Position numbers and translations under genes: made by a program. Shown one piece after another: positions 3,159-64,000 of a stretch of 64,000 nt of DNA. Each line of letters begins with the position of its first letter. The first letter of the stretch is position 1. The stretch comes from Escherichia coli (GTDB lineage Bacteria > Pseudomonadota > Gammaproteobacteria > Enterobacterales > Enterobacteriaceae): the NCBI RefSeq assembly GCF_030013205.1, contig NZ_CP122648.1. The stretch is one strand, 5' to 3'. The notes below the pieces were generated by a model. That model saw nothing but the letters and a program-made list of their open reading frames with translations. It was not told the DNA's origin and ran no database searches.

Positions 3159-10005
<6,847 letters not shown>

Positions 10006-56827: not shown

Positions 56828-57415
56828 TCATGCCCCCGCGAGGCTTGCAACGTTAATTTTGACCAGGCGACGGGGAGGGATTTTGAAAGCACTAAGCCAG
56901 TTATTCGGATCCCCCTGATATTCAGTAATCCGGCGCCCGGCTTCATCCATCCTGACTTTTTTAGTCAAATAACCCGGCGTGTTTTCCACGGCCCACTGAG
57001 CACTTTCCTGAGCAGCCTTGTAAATCTGATCTTCCAGCACCGCCAGCGTTGCAGAATCTGAAACGGAACGAATATCCACATCACTGAATTTTTTAGCCAG
57101 CTTCTGTGCGCCAATTAATGCACGCTTGCGGTAATCCATCGACTTTTCACCAGCAAACGGGGCCGGAGCTCGACGGCCCATATTGCTGTATGCGGAATCC
57201 GCTTTGGCCTGGGCTTCTGCCAGTGAGGATTCATCTTCGACTGACGCGACGATGTTTTGATTAGCGTTATCCTCTTTTATGAAATCCTGTGCGGGGATCG
57301 CATTCAGAATTTCGATAATCTCCTGCGGAGTGCTGCCCTGCGACTCTGACAGAGCGTTAACCACCTCCATCAGTTTTAATCGCAAATCTTCTTTGCTTGC
57401 TGGCATTTTTACCAC
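56828..57415 (-). CDS. phage-like hypothetical protein (195 aa)
   Basis: ORF MVKMPASKEDLRLKLMEVVNALSESQGSTPQEIIEILNAIPAQDF; acidic/helical; first gene of the leftward operon after a promoter-like gap. Confidence 0.5.
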   Translation of the reverse strand: MVKMPASKEDLRLKLMEVVNALSESQGSTPQEIIEILNAIPAQDFIKEDNANQNIVASVEDESSLAEAQAKADSAYSNMGRRAPAPFAGEKSMDYRKRALIGAQKLAKKFSDVDIRSVSDSATLAVLEDQIYKAAQESAQWAVENTPGYLTKKVRMDEAGRRITEYQGDPNNWLSAFKIPPRRLVKINVASLAGA

Positions 57416-57445
57416 CTCTCTTTTTTCACCAAAAAATCACGACCA

Positions 57446-57643
57446 TCAGGCCGGACGTTCTACGGGATAAAGCGCCCGCTGCATTAAACGCCGGGCGACC
57501 TCATGAATGCTCGGAGCAATCCCCAGCGGAGAATTGCGGCGTTCCTCGTCCTGGATGCGCTGTAATGCTTCAATCTGATCACGAGCGAGTAAAACAGGTT
57601 TCACGCTGGCTTTTCTCATAGTCATATCTCCTGAACAAAACAA
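57446..57643 (-). CDS. small hypothetical protein (65 aa or shorter from an internal Met)
   Basis: ORF MFCSGDMTMRKASVKPVLLARDQIEALQRIQDEERRNSPLGIAPSIHEVARRLMQRALYPVERPA; possibly a small DNA-binding/antitoxin-like protein; no family recognised. Confidence 0.35.
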   Translation of the reverse strand: MFCSGDMTMRKASVKPVLLARDQIEALQRIQDEERRNSPLGIAPSIHEVARRLMQRALYPVERPA

Positions 57644-57749
57644 CGATTATGATTGCACAAACTGAAATGACGATCTACATCATTGCAATTTATGAAACAA
57701 TAACGCATGATGATCGCGTTCTTCCCATTGACTTCAATCACCTGAAAAA

Positions 57750-57785
57750 CAAAGCCCGCAACACTTCTGGCTGCGGGCTTTTTAC
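57750..57785 (-). terminator. intrinsic terminator downstream of the PerC-like gene
   Basis: Minus strand GCCCGCAGCCAGAAGTGTTGCGGGC hairpin followed by TTTGTTTTT. Confidence 0.5.
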
Positions 57786-57820
57786 TGGCACAAAAAAGCC
57801 GGGAAAAATCCCGGCCTCCG

Positions 57821-58108
57821 TCACTGACTGCAATTTTTCGATCCAGGGTATTTCCTGAATGCCTTACCATTGGGCTGATGTAATCCCATCCCGGCATGTG
57901 CCCGGCTGATGGTTTCGCGCATCTCCCCGAAATTATCCTGCCGTGCTGGTGGGCGTGCTGCCTTGCGGATACATTCCGCGCGACGTTTTGCCGCCTGTTC
58001 CCGTGCCTTGTCATCATTCGCCAGCATGATGACCTCAGCCCACCGCGCCGCCGCTCTCCGGTACAGACCACGCGCTTCCAGTGCTTCCGCTTTGCTGTCG
58101 TGAATCAT
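57821..58108 (-). CDS. PerC-family transcriptional activator-like protein
   Basis: 95-aa ORF MIHDSKAEALEARGLYRRAAARWAEVIMLANDDKAREQAAKRRAECIRKA; the KAExLExRGxYRRAAxRW pattern matches recalled PerC/Pch-type activators. Confidence 0.55.
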   Translation of the reverse strand: MIHDSKAEALEARGLYRRAAARWAEVIMLANDDKAREQAAKRRAECIRKAARPPARQDNFGEMRETISRAHAGMGLHQPNGKAFRKYPGSKNCSQ

Positions 58109-58647
58109 GCGCCTGTTTTCTCCTTTGCTACCCGGCGCTGACGTTTGCGCTTCTCATTCAGCGCCACCAGCCGCGTTTCTGCGTCCTGTTGTTCCTGTGG
58201 TGTCACCTCGCCGCACGGCTGGCCTTTCAGGTCGTAGCGTACCCCACCAGCCATTAAGGCGCGGTAATAGCGCGGACACTGTGCATAAGATGCCAGCGTC
58301 GCACGCAATGCCCCTGGACCGAATGCCAGCCCCCTGACGGCGAGATCCTGCATCAGGTCGTCGAATATCCCCACCTTAAGCGGCTTCGGTGCTTCCCGGC
58401 TGAATAATTCAGGCCACAACTCAGTGAGGCGGTTAATGCGCCTGCGGTTTTTGCGCTGGCGCTTGGTCATATGCCGCCACAGTGTCGCCCCTGTGGGCTT
58501 CTGCTGCGCTTTCTGGTTACCGGGCATCACTTTATGCGCCGATGTGGTTTTATCCTGCTCCTGCGCCGCCTGCGTCGTTTTCTGCGGCGTGCCGTAAATG
58601 CCTTTAGGTTTTCTGTTAATGGTCAGCTTAGTCATGCTTTGCCCCAT
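58105..58647 (-). CDS. ProQ/FinO-domain RNA-binding protein
   Basis: 180-aa ORF; basic N-terminus then LTELWPELFSREAPKPLKVGIFDDLMQDLA...GALRATLASYAQCPRYYRALMAGGVRYDLKGQPCGEVTPQEQQDAETRL, closely resembling the recalled ProQ N-terminal FinO domain. Confidence 0.7.
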   Translation of the reverse strand: MGQSMTKLTINRKPKGIYGTPQKTTQAAQEQDKTTSAHKVMPGNQKAQQKPTGATLWRHMTKRQRKNRRRINRLTELWPELFSREAPKPLKVGIFDDLMQDLAVRGLAFGPGALRATLASYAQCPRYYRALMAGGVRYDLKGQPCGEVTPQEQQDAETRLVALNEKRKRQRRVAKEKTGA

Positions 58648-58719
58648 CGTTTTTACTGATTGCTACGTTGCCCAACGGCACTGACACAACATTCTGTTTT
58701 CATTTTTAACATTCCTAAT

Positions 58720-59115
58720 TTTTTAATTCCTCACCTGCTGCACAGTGAAAATTTATGAAGTTAATAACAATATGATTTTAAATGTATTTTTAAGTACTCA
58801 CTTTTTAATCCTTATATATACGCAAAAGTGAGGTAAATAGTTAAGTTTTAGTTAATATCTTGCATGGTGTGTTTTTTAACCTACCTGTTATTTTTATTAC
58901 CTCATTTCTATTAACTCACCATTCCTCACTTTTGTTCCTCACTTTTTGTTATTCCCGTCCTGCTCCTCACCTGTTTTTCTTGTTGTTGTAATGTCTTGTT
59001 TTACAATATGTTTTTCATTCCTCACTTTTTGACCTATATACAGGTGAGAAAGTGAGGAGTGGCGTTGATTTTTTGTTAAATTACCCGCCATCCTCACTTT
59101 TGCTCCTCACTTTTT
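58720..59115. repeat. iteron array (TCCTCACTTTT and variants, direct and inverted), candidate replication origin
   Basis: At least 10 copies of CCTCAC(T/C)TTT: e.g. 58728, 58924, 58937, 58964, 59020, 59091, 59105 direct and 58826, 59044 inverted, within AT-rich DNA directly 3' of the helicase gene; the last copies overlap the helicase stop codon. Confidence 0.6.
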
Positions 59116-60529
59116 ACAGTGGGCGCACATAATCACCGTCAATAGCGATTACGCCGTCGCTTTCCAGCTTGTACAGCCAGCGCCGGAAGTTTTTCATTTC
59201 ATACCCCAGCTTTTTCATATCATCGCGGAGAAGGGCGATAGTGCACGCCTCCCCGTGTGCTGTTCGCGTTCTGATGCACTGCCATAGCGCAGCGTGATTT
59301 TCCGTCTTGTTCCCGGCCTCCTCGATGCGTTCCAGTTCAACAGGTGGGCGCGGCTTATCCACAACCACCAGCGACGTGATTAACTCCCCGTCAGTGTCGG
59401 TAAAAAGCTCCACCACGCGTAAATCATATGCAGCCTCTTTCAGTTCCTCCGCGTCCTTCATTTTGGTGCAGGAGATAACCAGGGCTTCACTGTCCGCACC
59501 TTCACGGCGAATACGGTATTCAGCGTCCAGAGATGCACGAAATGCACTGGAACCACGCGCCCCTTTTGTTTCATCCTTGCCGGAATGGTGAACCACCAGT
59601 ACCGTGGCCCCCGTGCGTCGTTTCAGTTCGTCACATCCACGGATAAACGCCCCCATATCCCGCGCGTCATTTTCATCATTACCGCCAAAGCAACGCGCCA
59701 GCGTATCCAGAATAATCATGCGTACCGGTTTACCCGTTTCCCGTTCAACCTGACGGGAAGCGATGACCATTTCATCAACATCAAGCGGGACCGCCGGAAA
59801 AATCGGGCGGTTTACCAGGTACAGATTTTTCACCCGTTCATCATTAACGATTTCCCATGCTTTGATACGACGAGGGACACCAATGCCACCTTCACCGACG
59901 ACATACATCACCGAACCATGCGCCACCCTGCGGCCTCCCCAGTGGCGACCCGTGGCAACATGACACGCCCAGGAACACGCGAGGAACGATTTATAGGAAC
60001 CGCTCGCGCCGTATGTGCTGCACAATGAATTAGCCGGAATCACGCCCTTAACGACATAATCAAGCTGTGTGTCGTACCCTGCAGATCCAATACTCATTGG
60101 TAGTGTGGTTTTTCGCTGGTCGTTTTTTTCTTCCTCTGGTATCTCTCCGGACAGTCTTTTCTGGCGCTCTCGTTCCAGATATTCGCGCCACTCCTCGCGT
60201 TTCTGGCTGTGCATTCCCTCGGGGTAATAATTCGCATCCCGTACACCTGCCGCCGCCAGCTTTTGCCCGATGGCGTTAATATTTGACGGCTTGATGTGGC
60301 CTGCCTTGTACAGCCGGACACAATAGCGACCATCGTCGATAATTTTCAGGTCTGCCAGTTCGTCAAGCTGGCTGTCTCCCAGCCATACAGGCGGCACGTT
60401 GTCGCCAGCAAGTCGCCCGTCCTGCTCCTGCCACTGTTTCGCGTGCGCCCAGGCATCACTACCCGCAAAAATAATGACTTCGGTCATTTTGTCGTGTGGC
60501 TGTTTTTTTAAGTTCGGTGCCAGTTTCAT
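59114..60529 (-). CDS. RepA/DnaB-like replicative helicase (RecA-fold ATPase)
   Basis: 471-aa ORF with P-loop GASGSYKS, Walker-B-like ILDTLARCFGG and LVVHHSGKDETKGARGSSAF, typical of phage/satellite helicase-type initiators; start overlaps the upstream gene stop. Confidence 0.75.
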   Translation of the reverse strand: MKLAPNLKKQPHDKMTEVIIFAGSDAWAHAKQWQEQDGRLAGDNVPPVWLGDSQLDELADLKIIDDGRYCVRLYKAGHIKPSNINAIGQKLAAAGVRDANYYPEGMHSQKREEWREYLERERQKRLSGEIPEEEKNDQRKTTLPMSIGSAGYDTQLDYVVKGVIPANSLCSTYGASGSYKSFLACSWACHVATGRHWGGRRVAHGSVMYVVGEGGIGVPRRIKAWEIVNDERVKNLYLVNRPIFPAVPLDVDEMVIASRQVERETGKPVRMIILDTLARCFGGNDENDARDMGAFIRGCDELKRRTGATVLVVHHSGKDETKGARGSSAFRASLDAEYRIRREGADSEALVISCTKMKDAEELKEAAYDLRVVELFTDTDGELITSLVVVDKPRPPVELERIEEAGNKTENHAALWQCIRTRTAHGEACTIALLRDDMKKLGYEMKNFRRWLYKLESDGVIAIDGDYVRPL

Positions 60530-60825
60530 TTTGTGCCCCTGAATGCGTTAATCATGTTTTTCATTTTCTGAATATTTGCCCGTGCCTTTGCGTTGCTGGT
60601 GGGCTGTTTGCATGGCGTGGCCTGTATCAGTGAAAAATCACGCCGGAACTGATAAACAGGCATCACGCAGTCATATTCGTACCCATCACGGCGGTAAGTA
60701 ACGCACCGTCCCGCCACGCTTTTAATCGTTACAGTGCCGCCGTATTTATCTTTGAAAATATCGCCGGGGCGGATTTCAGGCCGAGAGAGACCGCTGGCAG
60801 TAAAGCCAGAATTTTTCTTTTTCAT
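60526..60825 (-). CDS. hypothetical protein (99 aa)
   Basis: ORF MKKKNSGFTASGLSRPEIRPGDIFKDKYGGTVTIKSVAGRCVTYRRDGYEYDC; coupled (ATGA overlap) to the helicase gene. Confidence 0.5.
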   Translation of the reverse strand: MKKKNSGFTASGLSRPEIRPGDIFKDKYGGTVTIKSVAGRCVTYRRDGYEYDCVMPVYQFRRDFSLIQATPCKQPTSNAKARANIQKMKNMINAFRGTK

Positions 60826-60831
60826 GGTTTT

Positions 60832-61197
60832 TTACTCCTGCGTCTTGCTCTGAATTACCTGATAACCGCAATCGGTCAGCAATTCGATAAATTCCGGCAA
60901 TGTGCCGAAACAGCAATTATCACGCATACGTTCGCGGGATACCTCAACGCCGTTTTCGTAGTGACTCACCATGCGTCCGGTAAAATGCAGATCATCATCG
61001 TGATGGCACGTTGACGGCTTAATCAGTCGCGCACGTTCTGCCAGCTCCAGCAATGCTTCAACACTTCCGGCAATTGCACCATCCGGCAGGCGATAATTAC
61101 TTACCACGCGTCCATTCTCCACATTGACCAGTAGCTGCCCGGTAAATTTCTCATCAAACTGAATGCTGTTAAGGTCAGAAATTGACAGGTTATGCAT
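60832..61197 (-). CDS. hypothetical protein (121 aa)
   Basis: ORF MHNLSISDLNSIQFDEKFTGQLLVNVENGRVVSNYRLPDGAIAGSVEALLELAERA; same operon, overlaps the upstream gene by 8 nt. Confidence 0.5.
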   Translation of the reverse strand: MHNLSISDLNSIQFDEKFTGQLLVNVENGRVVSNYRLPDGAIAGSVEALLELAERARLIKPSTCHHDDDLHFTGRMVSHYENGVEVSRERMRDNCCFGTLPEFIELLTDCGYQVIQSKTQE

Positions 61198-61552
61198 GGT
61201 GCACCTCCTGGCGAATACGGGCGGCGAATACCATCACGCAGCCATCAGGAGATTGCTGGCGTGCTTCCTGTTCGCTGGTGGCCTCGATGTGAATCACGCG
61301 CGGTTGTGCCGTACTCAGGGCGATAAAACGCCAGATAAAATTGTTTTCGCATTTCTGAATAAACAGCGTGTTTTCTTCGCGCCCTTTCCATGTTGCCGAG
61401 ATATAGCCCATGCCATTGAGCATCTCGCAGGCATCAACCAGCGTATCAGCGGCTACGTGTACAGTGTTTTTACCGTCAGCTATGCAATCACGGTGCACCG
61501 CCAGGAAGGTGTATATAAATTTAGGGTGAGTTTGGGTATGCTGTGTTCCAGC
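61190..61552 (-). CDS. hypothetical protein (about 120 aa)
   Basis: Internal start of the long minus ORF: MAGTQHTQTHPKFIYTFLAVHRDCIADGKNTVHVAADTLVDACEMLNGMGY, preceded by GAGGT RBS; everything upstream in that frame looks like antisense junk. Confidence 0.45.
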   Translation of the reverse strand, partial: AGTQHTQTHPKFIYTFLAVHRDCIADGKNTVHVAADTLVDACEMLNGMGYISATWKGREENTLFIQKCENNFIWRFIALSTAQPRVIHIEATSEQEARQQSPDGCVMVFAARIRQEVHHA

Positions 61553-61754
61553 CATAATCGTTACCTCATTTAACGGTTTGGTTAGAAGCCCCGTTACTGC
61601 TCCAACAGTGCGGGGCTTCGTCGTTTCAATTGCTGAATTGCATGTATCAGCCCTTGTGGTATTCAGATTACATTTTGGTGAATACCATTTCAAGTCTTTT
61701 TTGGTATTCACTTTTGTATTACACTGCATCCCGTTATTAATCGGAGGTGCAAAC

Positions 61755-62060
61755 ATGTCCACGAGTTCTGTTAACAATAAGTCACAGCAACTGAATGCCA
61801 GATTTCCACATGAAGTAGTGAGTGGCATTGAGGCATCCCTACAGCCAGGGGAAACTAAAGCGAATTTTATAGTTACGGCTGTACGCGGTGAGATCGCCCG
61901 CCGCCAGGCAGAAGGAAGCGGAGAAAACCCCCTGGTTTCTTCGCTCGATGCGCTGGCGCAGGTGGAAAAAATCGGAGTCAAAGCTGCCGAGGAGATCGGG
62001 CAGCTCGTCACCGTCGCACGTGAAGAACTCCAGCGCCGCAAGGCCAAAGAATCAGAATAA
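61755..62060 (+). CDS. small DNA-binding-like protein (possible ribbon-helix-helix / YlcI-YnfO-like), the only convincing plus-strand gene in the element
   Basis: ATG 61755 preceded by GGAGG RBS; MSTSSVNNKSQQLNARFPHEVVSGIEASLQPGETKANFIVTAVRGEIARRQAEGSGENPL (101 aa); divergent from the flanking minus-strand genes. Confidence 0.5.
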   Translation: MSTSSVNNKSQQLNARFPHEVVSGIEASLQPGETKANFIVTAVRGEIARRQAEGSGENPLVSSLDALAQVEKIGVKAAEEIGQLVTVAREELQRRKAKESE

Positions 62061-62283
62061 TAACTATCATCGCCGTGGTGTGAGGAACTCCGGCGCATTG
62101 CTTTACAGGTACACAGAATGACCAACAAAGAATCAACCAAAACACCATCACCAACTCGTAAGAGACGACGCAAAAATATAGCGCATGAACATGAATCAGA
62201 AAGATTCGCACCTTGTTCGTTTGCTCTTGAGAAATTCCTTAAAGAGCACAGGAAAAAGCTCTCGTTGCAAACCTTGGAACGAA

Positions 62284-62692
62284 CCAAATCTGACTGATCA
62301 CATTGCCCACCAGCCGCAAATGTGGCATTGTTGGTGATGCGTTCAAGTATGTAGCTTTTCCACTGGCGGCTCTCTACGGTCGCCTTTGTTTTATCCAGAA
62401 CGAAATCAGACATCAGATTGATCAGCACCTGGCGACCTGACAAAATCGCATCAGTCGCGCCACCAGCAAAATTTTTTGCTTTCCGGACGGCGTGACCAAC
62501 GGCATTTTGCAGCAAAATATTCTGCATTTCTGGCGTGCTGTAGTAACGGTGATCAGCGCCTTCACTCTGTGCGACCACAACGCTATAATCTGCCTCGTAG
62601 ACAGTAAGCAATATGGCGCAGTAGGCTATTCGTTCACAAAGGCGCTCCGGCAACGGGGCGCTTTTTGTTATGTTCATCGCGTTACGCCTCAC
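62284..62692 (-). CDS. hypothetical protein; protein-like N-terminal about 135 codons of a 500-codon open frame (true 3' end unclear)
   Basis: MRRNAMNITKSAPLPERLCERIAYCAILLTVYEADYSVVVAQSEGADHRYYSTPEMQNILLQNAVGHAVRK is protein-like, but the frame has no stop until 61190 and runs antisense through the plus-strand gene with Ser/Cys-rich junk; possible lost stop, frameshift or sequencing error. Confidence 0.35.
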
Positions 62693-62696
62693 ACCA

Positions 62697-62903
62697 TTAC
62701 GCAGCCGTTCCGCGCGCTTCTTCCTCGCGTTCTTTCAGCCAGGCCAGCACCTCATCTTCATACCAGCCAACACGACGCAGACCGATTTTGAAGCCTTTCG
62801 GGAATTTTCCGGCGTTGATCATGTCCTGTAGCGAACTGTCTGCCTTGATGCGCAGAATATTTTTTACTTCCTGACGGGTAAGGATTTTTCTGATTGTTTC
62901 CAC
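62697..62903 (-). CDS. alpA: AlpA-family phage regulatory protein (excisionase-like HTH)
   Basis: 68-aa ORF METIRKILTRQEVKNILRIKADSSLQDMINAGKFPKGFKIGLRRVGWYEDEVLAWLKERE, the AlpA/Vis pattern. Confidence 0.8.
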   Translation of the reverse strand: METIRKILTRQEVKNILRIKADSSLQDMINAGKFPKGFKIGLRRVGWYEDEVLAWLKEREEEARGTAA

Positions 62904-62971
62904 TATGTTTTACCTCGTTAATCCGGCGTATTCCGGTGATAAATACGGTAAAACAGGGCAGGGCGGGAAAA

Positions 62972-63008
62972 ACAGTACCCACCGTTTTAAAACGGTACCC
63001 ACTGTTTT
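62972..63008. promoter_or_regulatory. candidate operator in the alpA upstream region
   Basis: ACAGTACCCACCGTTTTAAAACGGTACCCACTGTTTTTT: two direct GTACCCAC copies flanking the perfect palindrome CCGTTTTAAAACGG, about 70-100 bp upstream of the alpA start. Confidence 0.4.
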
Positions 63009-63039
63009 TTATCTCATTGATTACGCTTTTCTTTTTGCA

Positions 63040-63066
63040 AAAAAATAGCGACCGCAAAGGGCCGCT
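63040..63066 (-). terminator. intrinsic terminator after the 76-aa ORF
   Basis: Minus strand ATAGCGGCCCTTTGCGGTCGCTAT hairpin followed by TTTTTTT. Confidence 0.45.
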
Positions 63067-63073
63067 ATTGTGA

Positions 63074-63304
63074 TTACCGCTTCCACTTCTTAGGTCGTCC
63101 ACCGCATTTAAGGCTGGTGGGTCTCAGCACCTTGTCGATGCTTTCAGCCAGATTTTTCGATGCGCCACGCGAGCGCAAAAAACTGACTACCTCGTGTTTT
63201 GTGGGGGCTGTTGATTTGTCTTCCGGATCGTACGTTGACCAGAATTCACGATTTGCCATTAAGGCCAGTTGCAGGCCTTCGCCGTAGGCGGTGGTATTTT
63301 GCAT
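63074..63304 (-). CDS. hypothetical small protein (76 aa)
   Basis: ORF MQNTTAYGEGLQLALMANREFWSTYDPEDKSTAPTKHEVVSFLRSRGASKNL between int and alpA; no family recognised. Confidence 0.45.
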   Translation of the reverse strand: MQNTTAYGEGLQLALMANREFWSTYDPEDKSTAPTKHEVVSFLRSRGASKNLAESIDKVLRPTSLKCGGRPKKWKR

Positions 63305-63402
63305 AATAGAATTTTCATATACTCCGGCCTTGTCGTTAAATTTGTGGCAATTATACGATGGTTTGGCATGGTTTTCACTGGTTGCACTGGCTTTTTGTAC
63401 AG

Positions 63403-64000
63403 TTACACGGCACGGATACCCCTTTTACCACTGGCTATGGTCACTCCGGTAGCTGCGGCCTCTACAAATTCCCCCCACCAGCGCATAAGCACCACGCGCT
63501 TTTCCAGGTAGTTACTTCGGTTATATGCTCGCCTTACCTCGTTCGTGTCCACGTGTGCGAGTGCGGCCTCGATTACGTCCGGCTCGAATCCTTCCTCGTT
63601 CGCTGCTGTACTGAATATGGCGCGTAATCCGTGAGACACCAGCACACCAGCGTATCCCATCCGGCGCAATGCAGCGTTAGCGGTCTGGCTGCTCATTGGC
63701 AGCATTGGATTTTTAAGGCTGGGAAAAACATGTTCCCTGTGTGCGCTGATTGGCTTCATTGTTTCCAGTACAGCCATCGCCTGACCGCAAAGAGGGATCA
63801 CATGGTCACGGCGCATCTTCATGCGTCCGGCTGGAATCGTCCAGGTTTCGGCATCGAGATCTATTTCTTCCCAGCGTGCGGCGGCTGCTTCGGCTGGGCG
63901 TGCTACGGTCAGCAGTTGCCACTCAATCAGCAATCTGGTTTGCCGTTCTATGCTGGCGACCGATAAATCGTGCATTAGCTGCGGTAGCTGTTCCGGTCGG
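63403..64000 (-). CDS. int: tyrosine recombinase / P4-type integrase, C-terminal catalytic part (gene starts beyond right edge)
   Basis: Frame is open to the window edge; C-terminal sequence ...HDLSVASIERQTRLLIEWQLLTVARPAEAAAARWEEIDL...HVIPL...LVSHGLRAIFSTAANEEGF...RRAYNRSNYLEKR shows the R...HxxR...Y catalytic residues of tyrosine integrases. Confidence 0.85.
   Translation of the reverse strand, partial: RPEQLPQLMHDLSVASIERQTRLLIEWQLLTVARPAEAAAARWEEIDLDAETWTIPAGRMKMRRDHVIPLCGQAMAVLETMKPISAHREHVFPSLKNPMLPMSSQTANAALRRMGYAGVLVSHGLRAIFSTAANEEGFEPDVIEAALAHVDTNEVRRAYNRSNYLEKRVVLMRWWGEFVEAAATGVTIASGKRGIRAV

Follow-up and report, generated by a model that had tools for sequence, protein, structure and literature searches.

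A P4 eta/kil-type nested frame carrying an antisense ribbon-helix-helix cassette in the probable regulatory zone of an Escherichia coli phage-inducible chromosomal island

The region at positions 60526 to 62692 of a 64,000-nucleotide stretch of Escherichia coli DNA (contig NZ_CP122648.1, hereafter the window) lies between alpA and a replicative helicase gene within a ~13-kb island. Judged by gene content and order, the island is a phage-inducible chromosomal island (PICI) of the EcCICFT073 type located at tRNA-Pro. The region contains a nested gene of the P4 eta/kil type in which an antisense cassette encoding a predicted ribbon-helix-helix (RHH) repressor, YlcI, stands in for the RNA immunity module. 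On balance, the region is probably the regulatory and early-replication zone of the island, built on the plan of the P4 left operon and operated by translated read-through and YlcI repression; confidence is high for the architecture and moderate for the mechanism.

The backbone of the region is an eta-like read-through open reading frame (ORF) on the minus strand (61190 to 62677), which comprises 495 codons from ATG 62677, or 500 codons (61190 to 62692) from the alternative start GTG 62692, and which ends as a Kil/Icd-like gene. ATG 62677, with GAGG 9 nt upstream, is the likely start. A preliminary description of this DNA, made by eye, had noted a 500-codon minus-strand frame with antisense genes embedded in it; the frame is indeed stop free and remains so up to 62734, giving 515 codons from 62734 to 61190. 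The stop codon of alpA (TAA, 62697 to 62699) lies 19 nt from ATG 62677, with a Shine-Dalgarno (SD) sequence present, and alpA, the long ORF, orf121, the DUF4222 gene, and the helicase gene form a continuous chain with junctions of +19, -8, +6, and -4 nt, respectively.

Related loci were picked from IMG/VR by the last 51 residues of the long ORF only, which avoided selection for openness; the 80 loci obtained contained 66 unique sequences. The frame is open far beyond chance, because these 66 sequences had 0 stops in 26,476 codons, versus 1,446 and 1,491 stops in the other two forward frames. In addition, the frame was open over 358 to 577 codons in all nine of the related E. coli loci examined, despite indels and replaced segments or modules, and a protein search returned >1,700 matching ORFs, many of them 400 to 530 amino acids long and most of them named “Icd-like.” The eta ATG overlapped the stop codon of an upstream antA-type gene by 8 nt in 34 of the 66 loci. 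A scan of genome contigs with the 51-amino-acid Icd domain yielded two loci only, and in Klebsiella pneumoniae ATCC 13883 the frame was present as a 324-codon ORF with an ATGA overlap with the upstream gene.

Several features of the sequence point with high confidence to selection that keeps the long frame open. The spacers that separate the start codon of ylcI from that of kil were 181, 190, 193, 196, 199, 205, or 208 nt long, all of which are 1 modulo 3, and the indels in the 5′ part of the frame were of +6, -3, and +6 nt. The variable core of the spacer existed in at least seven mutually unalignable AT-rich versions, each with 0 stops in the frame and 2 to 6 stops in each other frame; the joint probability of seven stop-free cores, calculated from base composition, was 10^-9.1. 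Furthermore, ylcI and the neighboring small gene orf59 share third codon positions with the long frame, and their codon choice appears to avoid the creation of antisense stops, which in ylcI arise from NNT-CAN or NN(T/C)-TAN. In ylcI, the codon preceding His or Gln ended in T in 1 of 80 cases (expected, 17%), and none of 17 codons preceding TAN had T or C as its last base (expected, 44%); the same two contexts in orf59 gave 0 of 131 and 0 of 51.

The opposite strand of the frame carries two genes and two terminator-like structures. The plus-strand gene ylcI (61755 to 62060; ribosome-binding site GGAGG at 61743 to 61747) had been seen in the preliminary description and is a real gene, but its product of 101 amino acids, described there as helix-turn-helix-like, is instead a YlcI/YnfO-family protein with an N-terminal RHH domain and a long C-terminal helix. 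Residues 9 to 50 match NF041551 (DUF3950) with 60.3 bits against a cut-off of 30, in agreement with the name given by the Prokaryotic Genome Annotation Pipeline (PGAP), and the ratio of nonsynonymous to synonymous polymorphism (pN/pS) of 0.22 indicates purifying selection. The AlphaFold model (predicted local distance difference test score, 81) contains an extended N-terminal segment, helices at residues 19 to 28 and 35 to 53, and the long C-terminal helix; YlcI has the strand-helix-helix fold of ~45 residues that defines the RHH (Arc/MetJ/CopG) superfamily. The best RHH fold matches were the antitoxins TacA, Rv0298, CopA_SO, and MazE. PDB sequence searches with YlcI or a YlcI profile gave nothing significant, and tblastn found no YlcI relatives in the phage collection at E ≤ 1e-3.

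The second plus-strand gene, orf59 (62118 to 62297), encodes a small basic protein of 59 amino acids antisense within the eta-like frame. It had previously been described as a possible basic ORF of 56 amino acids at 62119 to 62289; the ORF is real and the coordinates are corrected here. The product matches phrog_21027, a PHROG family of unknown function (E = 3e-15), has the conserved core ERFAPCxFALExFLKE, and is annotated as hypothetical in other RefSeq genomes; its coding signal is weak (pN/pS, 0.54). Downstream of orf59, the plus-strand unit is closed first by t1, a hairpin that resembles a terminator and has a T run (62365 to 62394), and other variants have at this site perfect hairpins of the GGCGACCG-CCCC-CGGTCGCC-TTTGTTTTG and GGCCACC types. 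A second such plus-strand structure, the intrinsic terminator-like t2 (62638 to 62675), consists of a 12-bp stem followed by TTTTTGTTAT; it sits on codons 2 to 13 of the eta-like ORF, facing alpA, and the hairpin is kept in other variants with different arms, e.g., GCGGCTCC/GGGGCCGC.

Apart from its last part, most of the amino acid sequence of the long frame is not conserved as a protein. The family match was limited to residues 452 to 495 (NF033153; 76.2 bits; cut-off, 25), and there was no Pfam match to the long ORF. In the 5′ 126 codons, variable sites were evenly spread over the three codon positions (24/26/22) and pN/pS was 0.78, against 23/22/58 variable sites in kil, 41/27/71 in orf121, 10/7/25 in ylcI, and 24/24/37 in orf59. 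Only 19 relatives of this part were found among 1.84 billion representative proteins, and nearly all of them were the same ORF. A conserved domain in the first 126 to 135 codons was therefore rejected as a candidate, there being no PDB or Pfam match, 19 close relatives, and no codon periodicity. These figures contradict the preliminary impression of a real protein in the N-terminal ~135 codons, and they leave intact the accompanying remark that the middle of the frame is not meaningful protein sequence. Full-length homologues, which the preliminary description had named as the finding that would speak against it, exist as an open frame but not as a conserved protein.

It is improbable, for the same reasons, that the long ORF is a genuine multidomain “Bro-network/Eta” protein that is functional over its whole sequence, with ylcI and orf59 as overlapping or spurious predictions. 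Gene callers and older PGAP runs do report an “Icd-like protein” of 400 to 530 amino acids at such loci, the length class of the long ORF is conserved, PMC10111431 treats eta-like genes as Bro-network proteins, and the EcCICFT073 version starts with an extra 85-amino-acid segment that is protein-like in look. However, a family match confined to the last 48 residues, a 5′ part that varies evenly at all codon positions and has so few relatives, and a spacer part that cannot be aligned between variants are not expected of such a protein, and on the strand opposite the middle of the frame lie two genes with families, ribosome-binding sites, and signs of purifying selection of their own and, in the case of YlcI, a confidently predicted fold.

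The arrangement is best understood by comparison with P4. There, eta is open from 8761 to 8168 (197 codons) and its ATG abuts the vis stop; kil starts at ATG 8365 with its own ribosome-binding site and makes up the final 65 codons of eta, within which C4 and isrK are also located. In the summary of Forti et al. (1999, J Bacteriol 181:5225) given in PMC10111431, a constitutive promoter inside eta is described whose transcripts end early through the CI and seqA RNAs, and Kil, whose role is in cell killing, is made on read-through. According to the same summary, translation of full-length eta takes place only from the upstream late promoter and is coupled to the alpA homologue, and this translation averts termination, which lets the late transcript reach the downstream genes.

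The window shares with P4 an AlpA/Vis-family gene immediately followed by a long ORF that ends as a Kil/Icd-like gene provided with a separate ribosome-binding site, an internal promoter region in that ORF, predicted in the case of the window, and coupled small ORFs and a replication protein downstream. In both, the eta-specific sequence is poorly conserved and the kil starts are homologous, the window start IMAGTQHTQTHPKFIYTF aligning with the P4 start IMATTLTPSHPEFVFVF. The differences are that the window ORF is 2.5 times longer (495 to 500 versus 197 codons), that it lacks C4/CI RNA and isrK/seqA and instead carries the opposite-strand RHH gene and basic ORF, its own terminator-like hairpins, and triple operator-like motifs, that the replication protein is a RepA-type helicase rather than the alpha primase-helicase, and that the window Kil is tandemly duplicated. 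An Rfam search of 57000 to 64000 at E ≤ 1 gave noise only, with no C4, isrK, or int-alpA, and C4 and isrK were also absent from six related ylcI-type loci, whereas the search did detect P4 and L068, which served as positive controls. L068 has an Icd domain 96% identical to that of the window and has C4 and isrK inside the frame and no ylcI. Since the frames of P4 and L068 contain C4 and isrK, and the ylcI-type loci contain neither, the RNA and ylcI cassettes are alternatives within one homologous frame. The proteins encoded by orf121, the DUF4222 gene, ylcI, and orf59 showed no homology to P4 epsilon, orf151, or orf106.

The same layout occurs in the model island EcCICFT073 (L097, 8526 to 10053; CFT073, NC_004431.1, 1379525 to 1381052), where an antisense orf57 and YlcI lie inside a 433-codon open frame that runs from just after alpA to the stop of the Icd-like gene. 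The order is int, alpA, antisense orf57 and YlcI, Icd-like gene, small ORFs, DUF4222 gene, and replication gene; the differences lie in the form of YlcI (59 amino acids), the 5′ module, and the replication protein (a primase). RefSeq annotates only a 66-amino-acid Icd-like gene at this locus and leaves ~530 bp after alpA empty.

The spacer upstream of kil contains the candidate control elements. The sequence GTGAATACC(A)/(T)GGTATTCAC, a perfect 10-nt inverted repeat, occurs in three operator-like copies within 61657 to 61711 (O1, 61702 to 61711; O2, 61678 to 61687; O3, 61657 to 61666, the third copy being located by coordinates). These copies bracket a candidate minus-strand kil promoter (61665 to 61693), which consists of a -35 element TTGAAA (61693 to 61688), a 17-nt spacer, and a -10 element TAATCT (61670 to 61665) and which is the only match of at least 8 of 12 consensus positions in the spacer; it would be the analogue of P4 PLE. 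A TTGAC-type -35 element is kept at the place of the kil promoter in all spacer variants. Across the loci, 17 distinct YlcI N termini were found, and each recognizable strand variant (xxxxR-I/V/F-P) pairs with its own ~10-bp motif, which occurs three times at fixed places: upstream of the -35 element, inside the promoter spacer, and after the -10 element. The near-identical strands SLTARIP and SVTARIA share one motif, GTGTAAGACA. Co-variation of this kind would be anticipated if YlcI were a repressor acting at operators on the kil promoter, and the three copies are accordingly predicted operators.

The operators also bear on the idea that the function of ylcI and kil is that of a toxin-antitoxin-like or addiction pair, and not of an immunity switch over replication; in such a pair, the RHH protein would neutralize Kil or only autoregulate, and Kil would be the toxin. 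The antitoxins among the best fold matches of YlcI would suit such a pair, as would the toxicity of Icd/Kil proteins as division inhibitors, indicated by the family name of NF033153 and, for P4 Kil, by PMC10111431. We nevertheless consider the pair a poor prospect, because the two genes are divergent and not co-transcribed, the predicted operators lie on a promoter that would also drive the replication genes, and the cassette fills the exact slot of the P4 CI immunity RNA in the homologous frame.

A switch based on YlcI repression and translated read-through can thus be proposed. In the resting island, YlcI would bind O1 to O3 and shut the internal promoter, and with this promoter shut, neither Kil nor the two small proteins nor the helicase would be expressed. 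During induction, a helper phage would activate the alpA promoter, and transcripts from alpA would cross the region on the strand opposite orf59 and ylcI. Ribosomes that reinitiate once alpA has been read would translate the whole ~1.5-kb stop-free track and then, by coupling, orf121, the DUF4222 gene, and the helicase gene. This continuous translation would protect ~1.1 kb of antisense RNA, which would otherwise carry no ribosomes, against Rho-dependent termination, a role that is proposed from the apparent selection against stops. Convergent read-through would probably interfere with repressor expression and would lock the switch on. As in excludons or convergent switches, two convergent units overlap by ~1 kb, and the activity of one should therefore silence the other; the difference is that the read-through transcript of the window is kept translatable across the whole overlap, which constrains codon choice on the opposite strand.

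Parts of this design have parallels in other phages. The phage P1 immI operon, c4 RNA-icd-ant, has an Icd-family division inhibitor as its first translated gene, and translation of this gene is needed for downstream expression; control is by the c4 antisense RNA, and no long in-frame upstream extension or antisense protein gene is known there. In P22 immI, Arc and Mnt are small RHH repressors with an xxxxR-hydrophobic-P-x-E/D-V N-terminal strand, are divergent from the repressed promoter, and have an operator specificity set by the strand residues. The PDB sequence searches detected no sequence relationship between YlcI and Arc/Mnt, and YlcI differs from them in having a long C-terminal helix or basic tail and in lying inside an antisense reading frame. 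For EcCICFT073 itself, reporter fusions of “ORF3” depend on alpA, overexpression of alpA starts replication of the island, and no repressor was known in 2018 (Fillol-Salom et al. 2018; PMC6092414). The alpA dependence would fit the proposed mechanism on the assumption, made here, that “ORF3” is the long frame.

Several observations weigh against the proposed switch. The internal kil promoter is an 8-of-12 consensus match only, and no convincing ylcI promoter was recognized. Long-frame translation, Rho dependence, and YlcI repression are all things that we infer from sequence. The excess of C over G in the minus-strand transcript is modest; as a Rho utilization (rut) signature it gave a weak local signal only, C/G ratios of 1.35 to 1.42 being reached only at 62010 to 61810. 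The frame is broken in L055 and in O157:H7 SS17, the latter a decaying island, and is absent from L077-type islands and from Pectobacterium. Finally, the model does not explain the segment between the two plus-strand terminators (62395 to 62637), which is conserved at the nucleotide level without codon periodicity: its mean pairwise difference is 0.027 to 0.042 at all three codon positions, compared with 0.062 to 0.098 at the third positions of kil and orf121.

Additional elements were seen in and around this segment. The palindromic motif CAGCAAAAT(T/A)TT(T/C)TGC occurs in it twice, 46 bp apart (62464 to 62489 and 62510 to 62535). A promoter-like plus-strand site at 62561 to 62589 would, together with t2, give an RNA of ~80 nt opposite the eta start. 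An antisense small RNA (sRNA) ending at t2 is possible and unsupported: covariation was weak (1 compensatory pair of 22, with 5 pairs broken), and the -10 element is poorly kept in variants. Folding z-scores for 62295 to 62700 were -2.2 and -1.7 and not decisive.

It is very unlikely that the open frame is instead a passive, untranslated by-product in which a wobble-sharing phase opposite real genes, together with nucleotide-conserved elements, makes stops rare. Such an account could draw on the shared third codon positions of ylcI and orf59, on ylcI of K-12, which lies in a prophage context and is also stop free in that antisense phase over 65 codons, and on the 5′ module, where only ~2.7 stop-creating changes are expected among 72 variable sites, given that 3.8% of the single-base changes that could occur would make a stop. 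However, the flanks of K-12 ylcI close the frame within 20 to 30 codons, and a passive frame would not be expected to pass through seven unrelated AT-rich spacer cores without a stop, to hold its spacers at 1 modulo 3 and its indels at multiples of 3, to go with the avoidance of antisense-stop-creating codons, or to start always at the stop of the upstream gene. In lambdoid cryptic prophages, exemplified by K-12 ylcI in DLP12 (L095, 4252 to 4446), the YlcI/YnfO gene is divergent from the small terminase gene nohD and lies beside cos, which is another setting for this RHH family.

Downstream of the spacer, the nested kil/icd-like gene (minus strand, 61190 to 61555; 121 amino acids; NF033153, E = 1.5e-21) has its own SD sequence GAGG and ATG 61555, which is preceded by TGAGGTAACGATT. 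Its product consists of two Icd-like units in tandem, one with HPKFIYTFLAV... and the other with NNFIWRFIAL..., and its pN/pS is 0.225; many sister islands have a single Icd-like unit of 62 to 68 amino acids. The 5′ leader of kil contains a GC-rich hairpin of 9 bp, GAAGCCCCG...CGGGGCTTC (minus strand, 61585 to 61619), ~15 nt upstream of the kil SD sequence. The hairpin is kept in other island variants, with arms that differ and are still complementary; it is not an obvious terminator because there is no T run on either side.

The gene orf121 (minus strand, 60832 to 61197) encodes a conserved protein of 121 amino acids, is preceded by AGGAG, overlaps kil by 8 nt at its start, and ends 6 nt before the ATG of the DUF4222 gene. 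It matches phrog_340 and phrog_2512, both of unknown function, has no Pfam match, and has a pN/pS of 0.29. The DUF4222 gene (minus strand, 60526 to 60825; 99 amino acids; PF13973, E = 6e-25; phrog_285) has a stop codon that overlaps the helicase start as ATGA, and in every related island examined, this gene stands directly before a primase or helicase gene. The last member of the coupled chain is the RepA-family replicative helicase gene (minus strand, 59114 to 60529), known from the PGAP annotation and the ORF listing. The three small minus-strand ORFs of 99, 121, and ~120 amino acids that the preliminary description had coupled to the helicase are thus accounted for, the third being kil, and the junctions bear out the coupling. 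These ORFs belong to the conserved set of the replication operon and are not variable cargo.

The preliminary suggestion that this stretch serves the satellite as a place for accessory or anti-phage cargo is hardly credible: satellites do carry defense genes near regulators, and one related island (L077, 2744 to 3654; IMG/VR UViG_2778261672_000001) has an unrelated 227-amino-acid opposite-strand ORF between alpA and an RHH gene, but none of six proteins of the region matched any PADLOC-DB 2.0 model (E ≤ 0.01), all genes belong to a conserved set whose order is shared by the model PICI EcCICFT073 and by many E. coli islands, coupling links the small ORFs to the replicative helicase, and the region is carried at least in part by 1,877 of 5,426 complete E. 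coli genomes. The 227-amino-acid ORF of L077 is itself a candidate for true cargo at this position. The RHH gene of that island (3460 to 3654) is different from YlcI and divergent from kil, and the island has no long open frame.

More tentatively, the window may exemplify a wider rule, which we put forward as a conjecture that could well prove too broad: many Gram-negative PICIs, including EcCICFT073, would be silenced by a so far unrecognized Arc-like RHH repressor (YlcI/YnfO) with swappable strand and operator specificities, embedded antisense in a “translation-only” ORF that is selected solely for the absence of stops, so that ribosomes from alpA carry transcription through the region, silencing the repressor, and into the replication genes. 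If true, a protein-based immunity would have taken the place of that conferred by the P4 CI RNA, and this would be a clear case of codon usage on one strand being molded by the requirement that its complement stay translatable. The switch proposed for the window would offer a natural system for translation as a pure antitermination device and for the resulting constraint on opposite-strand genes, as well as a concrete candidate for a Gram-negative PICI repressor, with predicted operators at 61657 to 61711 and an internal promoter. Nothing on a Gram-negative PICI repressor was found in the literature searched, and no description of a ylcI-type variant of eta/kil was found there, the coverage being incomplete.

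The proposed layout also resolves a recurrent annotation problem, in which PGAP calls a 500-amino-acid “Icd-like protein,” a pseudogene “missing N-terminus,” or nothing, and which touches at least the 1,877 complete E. coli genomes in which parts of the region occur. In the window, PGAP annotates 60526 to 60825 as DUF4222, 60832 to 61197 as a hypothetical protein, 61190 to 61627 as “Icd-like, pseudogene, missing N-terminus,” and 61755 to 62060 on the plus strand as YlcI/YnfO, and it leaves 62061 to 62696 empty. Sister islands are annotated inconsistently, with Icd-like proteins of 65 to 190 amino acids, pseudogenes without either end, and extra small plus-strand ORFs. The features listed in the preliminary description were all present and required small coordinate corrections only; as a whole, its reading of the region is partly supported.

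The host element lies between yejO and tRNA-Pro, and positions 60400 to 63000 are 100% identical to the chromosome of E. coli ETEC4079. Along the minus strand, the island contains int, a 76-amino-acid ORF, alpA, the region at 60526 to 62692, the RepA-type helicase gene, and genes for ProQ/FinO, PerC, DUF2213, and a lytic transglycosylase. It has the gene order (int, alpA, regulatory zone, replication gene, and then late or packaging genes), the tRNA or conserved site, and the size of ~10 to 15 kb of Gram-negative PICIs of the EcCICFT073 type. The alpA gene (minus strand, 62697 to 62903), annotated by PGAP as a helix-turn-helix regulator, encodes an AlpA/Vis-family helix-turn-helix activator/excisionase, which matched a PHROG excisionase/regulator family (E = 6e-9) and P4 Vis (blastp, E = 2e-7). 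Upstream of alpA (62975 to 63070), direct and inverted repeats of GTACCCAC(C/T)GTTTT were seen, which may be sites of AlpA autoregulation, and a strong minus-strand terminator follows the 76-amino-acid ORF (63069 to 63044). At the other end of the region, directly after the helicase gene and before the ProQ/FinO gene, an AT-rich segment (58650 to 59110; GC content, 0.33 to 0.37) is likely the replication origin of the island.

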